A stretch of 4,635 nucleotides of DNA from IMG/VR virus record IMGVR_UViG_2675903254_000011; one strand, given 5' to 3'. The notes below the pieces were generated by a model. The model saw nothing but the letters and a program-made list of their open reading frames with translations. It did no database searches and was not told the origin of the DNA. This document shows positions 1 to 4,635 of this stretch, in pieces. The position numbers were made by a program, and so were the translations under genes. The number at the start of each line of letters is the position of its first letter. The first letter of the stretch is position 1. This DNA is from a virus. Lineage: Duplodnaviria > Heunggongvirae > Uroviricota > Caudoviricetes.

Positions 1-446
1 GTCACCCAGTTACCGTTACGCTGCAACTGAATCAGCAGGCGGACGGATGCCGGGTTACGGTCACCCTGTGAGGTGGTCTCCAACAGTGACTGCACCCCGA
101 AGGTGACCCGCAGGCGGTCAATGTTCGCGGATGTAATGGTGCGCGTTACCGGCTTTGCCTTCGTCACTTCCACGCCCAGTCCGGTTTCAGCTCCGGATGA
201 CTCAAAACCTTCCGGCGGTGTCTGCTCCTGCTCCCCGGCGCGCCAGACCGCTGTCACACCATGTATCACAGGATTACCGTCCGTGTCCGTCAGCGGGGTT
301 TTGTTCACCAGAATACTCTGCAGCCCCTTCACCGGACCTTCCACCGGTCCCTCACCGATGGCATCAATCACGCTCATCATCTGCGTGGACTTAAGATTGT
401 CCTTTGCCTCAACCGGCGTGTGCGCCTTGCCGCCACCTTTACCCAC
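1..446 (-). CDS. J: Tail tip / central tail fiber (host specificity) protein J, N-terminal part; 3' end lies beyond the left window edge
   Basis: My minus-strand translation from GTG at 446..444 reads (M)GKGGGKAHTPVEAKDNLKSTQMMSVIDAIGEGPVEGPVKGLQSILVNKTPLTDTDGNPVIHGVTAVWRAGEQEQTPPEGFESSGAETGLGVEVTKAKPVTRTITSANIDRLRVTFGVQSLLETTSQGDRNPASVRLLIQLQRNGNWVT with no stop to position 1. This closely resembles the lambda gpJ N-terminus as I recall it (MGKGSSKGHTPREAKDNLKSTQLLSVIDAISEGPIEGPV...RLRFTFGVQALVETTSKGDRNP). A Shine-Dalgarno-like AGGAGAGGGGGA lies at 451..462. It is absent from the ORF track because it has no stop inside the window. Confidence 0.85.
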   Translation of the reverse strand, partial: MGKGGGKAHTPVEAKDNLKSTQMMSVIDAIGEGPVEGPVKGLQSILVNKTPLTDTDGNPVIHGVTAVWRAGEQEQTPPEGFESSGAETGLGVEVTKAKPVTRTITSANIDRLRVTFGVQSLLETTSQGDRNPASVRLLIQLQRNGNWV

Positions 447-486
447 TCTGTCCCCCTCTCCTGTCTGATGTCTGAATCTGTTTATG

Positions 487-521
487 CCCCAAAAACGACA
501 GGCACCCCGGAGGGTGCCTGT
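487..521 (-). terminator. Intrinsic-terminator-like hairpin on the minus strand, ~40 nt upstream of the J start
   Basis: Perfect 10-bp stem (plus 498..507 acaggcaccc pairs with 512..521 gggtgcctgt) with a 4-nt loop. On the minus strand it is followed directly by CGTTTTTGGGG (plus 487..497). There is no U-tract on the plus-strand side, so it is oriented for minus-strand transcripts. Confidence 0.55.
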
Positions 522-554
522 GTCATGACGGAATAAAATTTCTGAATTTCTTCA

Positions 555-659
555 CATTTTCTGTACGCCCCCGTGGCAGATATCATTCCCGGGCGTTACA
601 GTTTTTTCGGGCCAATAAAAACAAAACCCCCTGTGGTTAATCTTCATTTTCTGTTCCCG
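555..659. repeat. Imperfect direct repeat units in the I-J spacer core
   Basis: Exact 10-mer cattttctgt at 555..564 and 646..655. CCCCC(T)GTGG at 568..576 and 627..636. TTCCCG at 586..591 and 654..659. Read directly from the sequence. Confidence 0.35.
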
Positions 660-690
660 CAGCCTTCGGTCACTGCGGGATTTTTTCGCT
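655..690 (+). terminator. Intrinsic-terminator-like hairpin on the plus strand, abutting the 3' end of gene I
   Basis: 8-bp GC-rich stem (655..662 tcccgcag pairs with 673..680 ctgcggga). The loop ccttcggtca contains a C-UUCG-G tetraloop-like motif. It is followed on the plus strand by TTTTTT (681..686) then CGCTTTT. On the minus strand the hairpin is followed by ACAGAAAATG, with no U-tract, so it is plus-oriented. Confidence 0.55.
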
Positions 691-691
691 T

Positions 692-1176
692 TTATGCCTG
701 CCGCCCGATAACCACCACCTTCCCGTCACCGCCTTCATCACGGGTACTGATGTCCTGGGAGATTCGCCGTGAGCCAACCAGCATTTCACCGTAAGGCACC
801 GGCATCGGGTTCCCCTGAGCAATCATGTTGTCCAGTGAGGAAAAATACGTGTTCTGTCTGCCGTTATCCGTTGCGCGGTAATCCGGTGTTTTTGCCTTCG
901 GGGCCAGCATCTGTGCCACACCACCCAGTATCATGCTGGCACCCAGTGAAAACAGCATCGTGGTGGCAGAAAAACCGCCGGCACTCAGCGCTGCACCCCA
1001 GGCTGCCATCGATGCTCCGGCCGTGAAGAAAGAGCCCACGATGGCTGCCGCCCCCAGCACAATCTGCAGTCCACCTTTTCCGGCCCCGGCCAGTCGCGGC
1101 AAAGTTGTAAATCCCCGTGAAGGCAGATACGTGCCAGTGGCGGTGACGCCAGGCTGAATGCGTTCGTCGTTGCCAT
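692..1176 (-). pseudogene. I: Tail assembly protein I, disrupted: N-terminal 24 codons in one frame, C-terminal domain in another, apparent internal deletion of ~187 nt
   Basis: The ATG at 1176..1174 (SD-like GGGAGAGG upstream) opens MATTNAFSLASPPLARICLHGDLQ, matching the recalled lambda gpI N-terminus (MAATHTLPLASPGMARICLYGDLQ...). After LQ the frame reads unrelated sequence to a stop at 985. A different minus frame (track ORF 692..1102, open from 1201) encodes LPRLAGAGKGGLQIVLGAAAIVGSFFTAGASMAAWGAA...NTYFSSLDNMIAQGN...GEMLVGSRRISQDISTRDEGGDGKVVVIGRQA, matching the recalled gpI C-terminal domain. ATG-to-stop is 485 nt here against 672 nt in lambda. Confidence 0.65.
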
Positions 1177-2526: not shown

Positions 2527-2867
2527 CAGTTCACCACCTGCTCTATCGTGCAACTGAAATCACTGTACCGGGCATTATCCGTGACACTCCACTCACGGCA
2601 CACAACCCTCACCGTCCGGTTATGTTTCGGCGGTCGCCACAAAAAGGCACGGTAACCACCATGCCACGATAAAAACTCTTCCAGCCAGCGCCTGGTTGAC
2701 TCATCCGTCACCCGGAACACCGCCTGAAACGTCTTCAGTTGAGGATTCAGCCCTGTGGGGCGGCGCTGTTCATAACCGTCACCAAACCGCACCCTCACCA
2801 CCGACGGCTTCTCACTCACCTGCATCCCTTCACGCGGGACCAGATGCAGCGTTTTTATCTCAGCCAC
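2526..2867 (-). CDS. M: Minor tail protein M
   Basis: 113-aa ORF: MAEIKTLHLVPREGMQVSEKPSVVRVRFGDGYEQRRPTGLN...FLWRPP...IEQVVN, resembling recalled lambda gpM (MKTFRWKVKPGMDVASVPSVRKVRFGDGY...FEQVVN, 109 aa). The start is GTG at 2867..2865, preceded by GGAGGA and overlapping the last H codons. The position matching the lambda ATG is ATA here. Confidence 0.82.
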   Translation of the reverse strand: MAEIKTLHLVPREGMQVSEKPSVVRVRFGDGYEQRRPTGLNPQLKTFQAVFRVTDESTRRWLEEFLSWHGGYRAFLWRPPKHNRTVRVVCREWSVTDNARYSDFSCTIEQVVN

Positions 2868-4635
2868 TCAGCATTCCTCCGTCACGTCGCATGGACAGCA
2901 TCACCGCCTGCACCCGCTGGTCAATCAGCTGCACAAGACTGCCTGCCGCCTCCGGCCCTATCTGGCCATTAGTCCCGTCATTCTGAATGGCGATATGGTA
3001 GACCGGGGAATACACCAGACCCGCACTGCCGTTCATACTGCCCACCGCGCGCACACCCAGCGAGCCATCCGCCGCCCGCGTCAGAGGCATAATGGCTTCA
3101 GGTCCGGCCTCCCCCATCAGCCCGGCCCCTTTTGCAAAGGCAAAGTACGTGGGCGTATCCACAATACTGTTGCTGTACGCACTCAGGTTTGCCGAGGTAT
3201 ACACGCCGCCTTTTGCATTGGCCACCGCCCCGCCCAGCCAGTCACCAATGCTGCCGAGAAATCCTCCCGCACCGGACATACCGTTTGCCGCCGTCTTAAT
3301 TCCGTTGACAATCGCGGCATTCATAAGAACTTTTGATATTTCCTGCAGCACTGATGAGGCCCAGCTGCGCCATTCCACTTTATTCCCGTTCAGCATCTCC
3401 GTGATGTTATTCACCATCCCTGAGATACCCTCCGTCGCAAGCTGTGCTGCCTGTGAGGCGTAATCGGACGCATTATCCACCCAGTTACTGAACCCCTCCT
3501 GCAGCCCTTTCTGCCAGTCCGCACGCTGCACATCCGATTCGGCATAAAAGGCTTCCTGCTCTTTCAGACGTTCACTCAGATACTGTGCATTCTGCGCCAG
3601 AGCCTGTCTGTAAAAATCCTCACCGATATCCCCGGTCTGATACTGAGACTGAAGGTCCGCATCCTTCTGGCGGAAGCTGTCGCGGATCTGCTGCAACTCC
3701 CGCATGCGTTCTCTGGCTCGTTCCCCCTGCCCGTACCCCAGCAGTTCAGCATCATTCGACGCACGCGCAGCCGCATTCTCATTCTTCAGTGTCTCTTCCC
3801 GGGATCGCAACTGTTCCCGGATTTTTTGCTGGTCAATCAGGGCCGCATTACGCAGCAGCTCCTGCTTCTGCATCTCCGTCAGGGTTTTCAGTTCGCCCTG
3901 CGCAGTCTGGTATTTCAGCTTCGCCAGCTCTGTATTCTGCCCCACCAGTGCCAGTTGCTCTTTCTGCTGCTTCAGCAGCCGGGAAAAACTGTCTTCCGCT
4001 TTTTCCGTCTCTGATTTTCCACCCCGGGATTTGGGTTTATTCGCCTCGTTATTGCGCCAGGCTTCCAGGGCATTACTGATATAACGTTGTCTCGCCTCCT
4101 GATACGGATCACCCACAAAACCGAGGTCATCCGCCGCATACCCCAGCCGGACACGCTCTTTTTCTTCCCCTTTCAGTCTGGACAGGGCCAGCTCACGCTC
4201 TGTTTTTGTCAGGGCACTCTGCTGTTTATCATCCAGAGTGGCCTGTGGCAGCCGTAACGGCACATTCACCAGTCCCTGCCGCTGCTGAAGCAGTTCATTA
4301 CCCAGCCCCAGCAGACGGTTGAATTCCGTATGCTGACCATTCATAACCAGCATGGACTGGTACACCTTATTCTGCTCTGCCGCCTGCTGACGAATTAACG
4401 CCACACGACGGTCTTCCAGCCCGGCAAGCACATCCTGAATGGACTGCGCTTTTTCCTGCATCTGTGCCAGACGGGACTGCTCAACGGCAAGCTGCTCTGT
4501 TGCCTGAGCAAGCCCTTCCGTTACGGTCTTCACCGAGGTCAGATGGTTTATCATGAATCCGTCACCGGTCGTCCAGCCCGGGTTCGCCAGAACATACTGA
4601 TATCCTGCGATTTTTTCCTGCAGGGATTTCACCCG
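2860..4635 (-). CDS. H: Tail tape measure protein H, C-terminal ~590 aa; 5' end lies beyond the right window edge
   Basis: A continuous minus-strand frame runs from the window edge to TGA at 2862..2860. It encodes a long Q/E/R/K/L-rich predicted helical region followed by a Gly/Ala-rich hydrophobic segment (GMSGAGGFLGSIGDWLGGAVANAKGG) and a C-terminal tail, as is typical of tape measure proteins. It sits immediately upstream of M-L-K-I-J as in lambda. The track ORF starts at an internal GTG (4632); the frame stays open to 4635. Confidence 0.88.
   Translation of the reverse strand, partial: RVKSLQEKIAGYQYVLANPGWTTGDGFMINHLTSVKTVTEGLAQATEQLAVEQSRLAQMQEKAQSIQDVLAGLEDRRVALIRQQAAEQNKVYQSMLVMNGQHTEFNRLLGLGNELLQQRQGLVNVPLRLPQATLDDKQQSALTKTERELALSRLKGEEKERVRLGYAADDLGFVGDPYQEARQRYISNALEAWRNNEANKPKSRGGKSETEKAEDSFSRLLKQQKEQLALVGQNTELAKLKYQTAQGELKTLTEMQKQELLRNAALIDQQKIREQLRSREETLKNENAAARASNDAELLGYGQGERARERMRELQQIRDSFRQKDADLQSQYQTGDIGEDFYRQALAQNAQYLSERLKEQEAFYAESDVQRADWQKGLQEGFSNWVDNASDYASQAAQLATEGISGMVNNITEMLNGNKVEWRSWASSVLQEISKVLMNAAIVNGIKTAANGMSGAGGFLGSIGDWLGGAVANAKGGVYTSANLSAYSNSIVDTPTYFAFAKGAGLMGEAGPEAIMPLTRAADGSLGVRAVGSMNGSAGLVYSPVYHIAIQNDGTNGQIGPEAAGSLVQLIDQRVQAVMLSMRRDGGMLSG

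Follow-up and report, generated by a model that had tools for sequence, protein, structure and literature searches.

We analysed a stretch of 4,635 nucleotides (nt) of the virus record IMGVR_UViG_2675903254_000011 (Caudoviricetes), and we refer to this whole stretch as the window. Its minus strand carries a tail module of the lambda type with the genes in the order H, M, L, K, I and J. Our subject is a hairpin that lies on the tail-operon strand in the spacer between gene I, which encodes the tail assembly protein, and gene J, which encodes the host specificity or tail tip protein and is annotated as gpJ in identical or near-identical records. The stretch around the I-J gap is 100% identical to prophages of Escherichia coli O157:H7 and to Stx1a-converting phages. 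Among 5,426 complete E. coli genomes, 1,044 contain matches to it, typically at several sites (median of five per matching genome). The coordinates of the genes and of the elements in the spacer are given in Table 1.

The first-pass annotation, which was made from the sequence alone, had described a perfect 10-bp stem followed by five U residues on the minus strand between I and J, and this description is borne out by the sequence, the inverted repeat search, the folding and the terminator score. The two arms are complementary at 10 of 10 positions with seven G-C pairs and enclose a loop of 4 nt, and the hairpin is the sole perfect inverted repeat of at least 10 bp in the window. Folded alone as a 39-mer, it reaches -23.1 kcal/mol (z = -4.6) and none of 200 dinucleotide shuffles is as stable; across estimates, its stability ranges from -20.8 to -23.1 kcal/mol. 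The annotation had also tied its reading to the structure being favoured in the mRNA. When the RNA of the whole 245-nt spacer is folded, the hairpin persists in both the minimum-energy and the centroid structure.

To place the hairpin among other candidate terminators, both strands of the window were scanned with a score of the d'Aubenton-Carafa type, which combines the stem energy per nucleotide with a weighted term for the U tail. Only three sites on the two strands score above 0: 655-680 on the plus strand (15.9), 2665-2646 on the minus strand (12.8) and the hairpin itself at 520-499 on the minus strand (5.2). By comparison, 25 dinucleotide-preserving shuffles of the window contain a mean of 0.04 terminator-scoring sites. 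Considering the perfect stem, the z-score of the fold, the shuffles and the number of terminator sites relative to shuffled sequence, we thus conclude that the hairpin at 498-521 is real and well beyond chance. It has the form of an intrinsic terminator, that is, a G+C-rich stem-loop (about 5-14 bp, with a loop of 3-8 nt) and a U-rich tract that begins 0-2 nt after the stem. Its tail, however, consists of a 2-nt spacer (CG), only five U residues and then four G residues, which results in a low tail score (1.3-2.1), and termination at the copy in the window is thus predicted to be partial and not tight. A distance of 44 nt separates the end of the U tract from the start of J. A sigma-70 scan of the whole window detected no promoter-like site, including none between 491 and 446, so that the claim that no promoter separates the hairpin from the start of J holds as well.

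Table 1. Genes and spacer elements in the window, listed in the direction of tail-operon transcription (minus strand).
Feature	Position	Strand	Remarks
Tape-measure gene H	extends beyond the window at 4632; end 2860	-	
Gene M	2867-2526	-	
Gene L	end near 1828	-	
Gene K	start 1817	-	
Gene I (tail assembly protein), 3' part	692..1102	-	stop codon 694-692; 5' part deleted
I-J spacer	691-447		245 nt, between the I stop codon and the J start
EcOnc22-24/PasB-type small RNA gene	593..688 (5' end approximate)	+	antisense to the tail operon
Intrinsic terminator of the small RNA	655..688	+	UCCCGCAG...CUGCGGGA, then U6; best score in the window (15.9); from inverted repeat and fold
-10-like hexamer of the small RNA (putative)	581..586	+	TATCAT; same register as AATAAT (Sakai) and TATAAT (E2348/69)
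CRP-like palindrome	541..556	read on -	TGTGA-N6-TCAGA, 16 bp; match to TGTGANNNNNNTCACA with at most one mismatch
Conserved U-rich linker	522..540		separates the hairpin from the CRP-like site; sense strand AAAUUUUAUUCCGUCAUGAC; from alignment
Terminator stem-loop	498..521	-	ACAGGCACCC / UCCG / GGGUGCCUGU; perfect inverted repeat
Terminator tail	487..497	-	CG, then U5 (495-491), then GGGG
J leader	447..486	-	Shine-Dalgarno region at ~462-451; no promoter-like site
Gene J (host specificity / tail tip protein), 5' part	1..446	-	start GTG 446-444; translation begins VGKGGGKAHTPVEAKDNLKS

The spacer between I and J differs in length among phages. It measures 60 nt in lambda and its close relatives, 234-253 nt in the family to which the window belongs (type b) and 336-343 nt in type c. 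By this comparison, the 245-nt spacer of the window is an insertion relative to lambda and not empty intergenic DNA. To compare the parts of the spacer, we calculated conservation as the mean majority frequency over 29 unique spacer variants of type b. This frequency is 1.00 for the half-sites of the CRP-like palindrome, 0.91 for the linker, 0.92 for the hairpin and 0.92 for the terminator tail, compared to 0.71 for the variable body of the small RNA gene and 0.82 for the J leader. Palindrome, linker, hairpin and tail thus form the best conserved block of the spacer. Within the J-proximal half, conservation is lowest in the J leader; its identity to the window is only 0.52, since several unrelated leader versions (at least four) are joined just after the U run. 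The hairpin itself is kept in all 47 type b loci, with one mismatch in two unique variants, and a run of four or five U residues follows the stem in every variant. Across the variants, 97% of cells are paired, with one compensatory change from a C-G to a U-A pair and several G-U changes. The G-U changes show a weak strand preference, as 97 cells are paired on the sense strand compared to 94 on the other. Type c has lost the homologous hairpin, and the same stretch contains an unrelated strong hairpin (CCCCGGUAUC-UGCU-GAUACCGGGG) followed by the U-rich sequence UUUCUCUUU.

A similar element is found at the same position in phages whose spacers are unrelated to that of the window. In 10 of 15 junction types, the 130 nt upstream of J include a site that scores above 0, namely in lambda, mEp235, ECP1, mEp043, Serratia Swain, phiA2-1, TSK1, tonnikala and the types b and c. 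The elements at these junctions are non-homologous and each has a U-rich tract; those outside the types b and c lie 7-56 nt before J, with scores from 6 to 43. In the 60-nt spacer of lambda, the element is CCGCC-UGCG-GGCGG followed by UUUUGUCAUUUAU; it is located 25 nt before the J start at ~15,466-15,492 of J02459 (stem-loop 15,466-15,479). The hairpins of lambda, of the HK97-like phages (mEp235 and ECP1), of mEp043, of Swain and of the T1-like phages (phiA2-1, TSK1 and tonnikala) thus resemble the hairpin of the window in position, strand and terminator shape, but they share no sequence homology with it. Furthermore, lambda does not contain the small RNA cassette described below, yet it has a hairpin at the corresponding place of its I-J spacer. 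Tonnikala has, in addition, a promoter-like TTGCGC-17-TATAAT that overlaps the terminator and continues beyond it; J seems to open a new transcription unit in that phage. No such sequence is present in the window; in lambdoid phages, no promoter follows the terminator and J must be reached by read-through. From these comparisons, phages with a lambda-type tail tip appear to have a recurrent boundary of transcription at the I/J junction.

The junction loci with unrelated terminators are L140 (lambda), L126, L127, L128, L130, L133, L134 and L138. One of them, mEp043 (L127, ~820-846), is unusual as the U7 of its terminator abuts the annotated start of J and leaves no space for a conventional Shine-Dalgarno sequence. 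The only AGG-like motif there lies in the 5' arm of the hairpin, so that either the start is wrongly annotated or initiation is unusual.

Lambdoid late operons are transcribed from PR' by a polymerase that has been made terminator-resistant by Q. The window spans H to J only and we thus read the Q context from the Sakai prophage Sp15, which carries a close variant of the window's spacer. There, an annotated antiterminator gene Q, tR' and stx1 lie upstream in the orientation of the tail genes. The first-pass annotation had placed the terminator in a late operon under Q antitermination, and this is coherent with the context in Sp15. Putting these observations together, we favour, with a little better than even confidence, the reading of the hairpin as a Rho-independent terminator of the tail-operon strand, marking the boundary between M, L, K and I on one side and J on the other, which Q-modified polymerase reads through and at which unmodified polymerase stops. 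During lytic growth, Q-modified polymerase coming from PR' would ignore the hairpin, and J would be included in the long late transcript. A polymerase without the Q modification would stop at the hairpin and would not enter J. Such polymerases could originate from starts inside the late region of the prophage, for example in an Arc/Ant-type cassette between L and K such as that of a close relative, or from spurious promoters. Known terminators in the Q-dependent late operons of lambdoid phages are likewise G+C-rich hairpins with a U run that are located on the operon strand inside the long late transcript.

If this reading is correct, the element itself would be ordinary, one more terminator that is ignored by antiterminated polymerase. 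A terminator that recurs at the I/J junction, including that of lambda, would nevertheless bear on the silence of the host-range gene in lysogens and on the question of where tail modules are exchanged. The first-pass annotation had further proposed that J is attenuated relative to the upstream genes. We found no support for this part; the lambda genes just upstream of J (M, L, K and I) are themselves low-abundance products. In a published table for a lysogen of enteropathogenic E. coli (EPEC), the values for I and J are both very low (BaseMean 4.8 and 15), and they are uninformative on a drop in coverage at the hairpin as both genes are barely expressed. For strain Sakai, Term-seq, dRNA-seq and total RNA-seq data, mapped to NC_002695.1, are available under GEO accessions named in PMC7547250. 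The earlier interpretation is partly supported: the kind of element was right and the proposed logic is plausible, but the context of the spacer was missed.

Several observations weigh against the terminator reading, and some of these concern the window in particular. Its copy of the hairpin has the weakest U tract and the lowest score of its family (5.2 compared to 12-25 in the sister variants), and with manually chosen stem boundaries its score falls between -9 and -2. The common variant has UG-U5-GUG in place of the CG-U5-G4 of the window. In addition, the K/I junction of the window (~1096-1101, minus strand) is disrupted. Here, 187 bp are missing compared to all relatives, such that the 3' end of K and the first ~170 bases of I are lost and the frame is shifted; the reading frame of K extends to 864 after the deletion. 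Because of this frameshifting deletion, the tail operon of the window may be non-functional; its tail module is probably defective, and the hairpin may persist in this copy as a relic. The arrangement with the deletion was found in one piece in none of the complete E. coli genomes of the collection. Other points concern the element in general. Five of the 15 junction types do not have a terminator, so the element is not obligatory; these five are junctions where the two genes overlap or adjoin directly, or where a comparable spacer is absent. The GenBank record of lambda annotates no terminator at the I-J junction, and we found no published test of a lambda I-J terminator in the literature. 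Lastly, covariation in the stem lacks significance, with 172 of 500 column shuffles scoring at least as high as the real alignment; the variants are too alike. The recurrence of the position across non-homologous phages is a stronger argument for selection than covariation.

Part of the evidence could also be explained by a function of the hairpin in the message rather than in transcription. It might shield the 3' side of the M-L-K-I transcript from exonucleases, or it might form the 5' hairpin of a processed J message. It is well established that hairpins between bacterial cistrons can give the parts of a message different stabilities, the stem here is strong and remains stable in the context of the spacer, and it sits in a transcript that antiterminated polymerase would not end there. 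Nonetheless, each of the 10 independent versions has a U-rich tract after the hairpin, which would be needless for a stabilising element, and the promoter-like sequence at the tonnikala element points to a boundary of transcription. Moreover, a stem of 10 bp is too short for RNase III. We consider a role in message stability or processing unlikely.

The terminator reading leaves the remainder of the spacer to be explained. As judged by the comparison with lambda, a cassette of ~185 nt has been inserted between the I stop codon and the hairpin, with the hairpin forming the border of the cassette on the side of J. The cassette contains a small RNA gene on the plus strand. In the window, the segment 636-688 (plus strand) is located in the I-J spacer, in antisense orientation relative to the tail genes, and includes the arms UCCCGCAG and CUGCGGGA, the following U run and a conserved UUAAUCUUC block. 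The variant in the window has the conserved ends that are common to Sakai and E2348/69, whereas its middle segment is different. Rfam models gave no family match; their single hit, at chance level (E = 0.45), lies elsewhere in the window.

Small RNAs from this position have been described under two names. EcOnc22, EcOnc23 and EcOnc24 are Hfq-bound small RNAs from the Sakai prophages Sp15, Sp14 and Sp11, all of which are encoded on the plus strand (Tree et al. 2014, PMC4104026). The tail genes of these three prophages are encoded on the opposite, minus strand. On northern blots, the EcOnc22-24 RNA has a size of ~85 nt, and it is destabilised without Hfq (PMC4104026). The 35-mer probe used for these blots is the reverse complement of TAACTCCATAACGTTAATCTTCATCGTTCTCTCCC, which is located just 5' of the spacer hairpin beside the I stop codon. 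PasB of EPEC strain E2348/69 is a minus-strand, Hfq-dependent RNA of 83 nt (probe AATCCCGCAGTGATCGCGGAGCT) that runs from 1,466,343 to 1,466,261 (Pearl Mizrahi et al. 2021, PMC8550237; see also the preprint by Zhu, Shabalina and Storz 2026). We observed that PasB maps to the I-J spacer of prophage PP6 of E2348/69, antisense to I and J. Both published probes thus map to the homologous spot and strand of the I-J spacer in Sp15, Sp14 and Sp11 of Sakai and in PP6 of E2348/69, which is why EcOnc22-24 and PasB appear to be one gene family. We found no link between the two names in the literature, and the published Pas table ties PasA and PasD, not PasB, to EcOnc names. In the literature on EcOnc22-24 and PasB, we also found no mention of a sense-strand terminator or of a CRP-like site in the spacer.

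The assignment of the published peaks to one of the two hairpins depends on the version of the Sakai genome. The coordinates in Table S2 of PMC4104026 refer to NC_002695.1, and near Sp15 (~2.9 Mb) they are offset by about +128 to +136 in NC_002695.2. Two comparisons gave this offset: the positions of three probes, and the 3' end published for StxS (2,925,944) relative to the U run of tR' in version 2 (~2,926,080). In NC_002695.2, the Sp15 copy of the 498-521 hairpin occupies 2,902,741-2,902,764 and its U run ~2,902,735-2,902,738, both on the minus strand. With the offset applied, the EcOnc probe is centred in its peak, on the RNA of the other hairpin. An apparent location of the EcOnc22-24 peaks on the 498-521 hairpin was thus rejected as an artefact of using unshifted NC_002695.1 coordinates in NC_002695.2. 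By strand and position, the 498-521 hairpin is not the terminator of the small RNA, as the cassette runs in the opposite direction with a separate terminator of its own, and the hairpin lies ~70 nt upstream of the small RNA start. Two further candidates in the spacer were also rejected. A sense-strand gene for a small protein (647-552, 31 amino acids) is not coding, as many variants lack its start codon and share no related sequence after MKIN. Pairing of the small RNA with the ribosome-binding region of J is weaker than that of shuffled sequences in three variants.

The cassette resembles a moron in that it is extra DNA (245 nt compared to 60 nt in lambda) with its own terminator, while its promoter is putative and consists of a -10-like hexamer and a CRP-like site. 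Terminators that bound morons are known (Juhala et al. 2000, as cited in PMC4104026), and the hairpin of the window is likewise located at the edge of extra DNA that is absent from lambda. It differs from these terminators as the cassette is transcribed in the opposite direction and has its own terminator, and as the hairpin corresponds in position to one that lambda already has.

The CRP-like palindrome at 541-556 is the only match to TGTGANNNNNNTCACA with at most one mismatch in the window; with a chance expectation of 0.17, this match is not significant alone. Its half-sites are invariant in the 29 unique spacer variants, save for one variant with a single change, whereas the inner 6 nt vary. 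The gap between the palindrome and the -10-like hexamer is constant at 24 bp in the four variants that were examined by hand (the window, Sakai, the L041 type and E2348/69); in the L041 type, the hexamer is AATAAT. This suggests that the palindrome is the activator site of the small RNA, which would be under putative control by cyclic AMP and CRP. The fit to a CRP promoter class is not clean, since the palindrome would be centred at about -44.5 if the hexamer is the -10 element but at about -59.5 if the published 5' end of the 83-nt RNA is the start. The published RNA sizes of 83-85 nt suggest either a start ~10-15 nt further downstream or processing of the 5' end. A CRP-dependent promoter on the sense strand that drives J from beyond the hairpin was rejected, as inspection revealed no conserved -10 element at a workable distance. 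The hairpin borders a multicopy small RNA cassette of enterohaemorrhagic E. coli (EHEC) and EPEC prophages, for which the CRP-like site suggests a link to the carbon source.

We also considered that a small RNA on the sense strand ends in the hairpin, which would serve as its terminator and as its Hfq-binding 3' module. This RNA would stem from the 3' untranslated region of I or from its own promoter, would overlap EcOnc22-24/PasB with full complementarity and would form a dyad with it. A U-rich single-stranded segment (AAAUUUUAUUC) together with the stable hairpin and the U tail has the composition of an Hfq module as described in PMC4104026, and paired small RNAs (dyads, near PR') have been reported in these prophages (PMC4104026, PMC7873438). 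The hairpin block is also the best conserved part of the spacer, as seen above. However, no sense-strand sigma-70 promoter was found in the spacer, and lambda and other phages keep the terminator without the small RNA cassette. The network table from RIL-seq in EPEC does not contain a node named for the flanking genes E2348C_1436 or E2348C_1437, and none of the minus-strand entries in Table S2 of PMC4104026 is close to any of the three copies in Sakai. The latter absence weighs little, because the screen by Hfq cross-linking and analysis of cDNA left out sense-strand sites at most 100 bp from a coding region and could not list the hairpin. As with a role in message stability, we regard a sense-strand small RNA as unlikely.

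A more far-reaching proposal is that the terminator and the antisense small RNA form one unit. Sense transcripts of unmodified polymerase that end at the hairpin would carry a fully complementary tail of ~200 nt and might sponge EcOnc22-24/PasB; the small RNA might in turn bind the I-J segment of the late message and set the level of J. The terminator before J would then be a conserved checkpoint of lambda-type tail modules, at which the host-range gene is controlled separately. We offer this combined scheme as a speculation that we consider improbable.

Mosaicism offers another explanation, in which the hairpin is a functionless leftover of module exchange that is tolerated because Q-modified polymerase ignores it. 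The spacers are mosaic, one locus (L007) has a hybrid hairpin with one mismatch, and unrelated J leaders are joined just after the U tract. The damage to the tail module of the window and the weak tail of its hairpin fit this explanation as well. A neutral relic would, however, not be expected to recur at the same place in non-homologous sequence, as the element does in 10 of the 15 junction types, nor to be better conserved than most of its surroundings. We thus judge the leftover explanation to be improbable. That the inverted repeat is bound as DNA by a dimeric protein, for instance one that regulates the promoter of the small RNA, is highly improbable: the repeat is perfectly palindromic, lies upstream of that promoter at 20 bp from the CRP-like site, and the sole compensatory change also keeps the symmetry of the DNA, but the G-U variants keep the RNA pairing while breaking the DNA symmetry (5 cells, sense strand), the U tract is conserved on one side only, and other phages, including those without a nearby small RNA promoter, have unrelated sequences of the same RNA shape.

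Other known small RNAs of these prophages were compared to the RNA of the I-J spacer. HnrS (EcOnc10-12), AgvB, AsxR and StxS are, like EcOnc22-24, short, Hfq-associated, terminator-ended and multicopy in EHEC prophages, but they are located elsewhere: StxS, AgvB and AsxR at the PR' insertion site and HnrS between the lysis and packaging genes. AgvB and AsxR were rejected as the RNA of the I-J spacer on the basis of this placement (PMC4104026). HnrS (66 nt, multicopy) was rejected likewise by its map position, and the distance of 66 nt from the palindrome to the U5 tract in the window is a coincidence. PasA, PasC and PasD are found near Q and the lysis genes and not in the I-J spacer.

The tail genes upstream of the spacer show two further features. 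The second-best terminator score of the window (12.8) belongs to a sense-strand hairpin at 2646-2665 (minus strand), inside the coding sequence of M, which consists of GGCAUGGUGG-UUAC-CGUGCC and U5. The hairpin is not kept in the copy of Sakai Sp15, where only UUUUUGUGG, encoding F-L-W, is conserved, and it is thus probably fortuitous. In a relative from a prophage of E. coli E2865 (L001, 104-1699), whose I-J spacer is 100% identical to that of the window, an insert encoding Arc, Arc and the antirepressor Ant lies between L and K. The ant gene of this insert is oriented as the tail genes (sense), and the insert is absent from the window.

Lastly, many matches came from genome assemblies with labels of unrelated organisms, among them Streptomyces, Leeuwenhoekiella, Bradyrhizobium, Paenibacillus and various metagenome-assembled genomes (L087, L089 and L091-L125). 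These are short contigs that contain either the J of lambda (74% identity to the query) or the EHEC-type spacer (95-97%), and they look like contamination of the assemblies with lambda or E. coli DNA.

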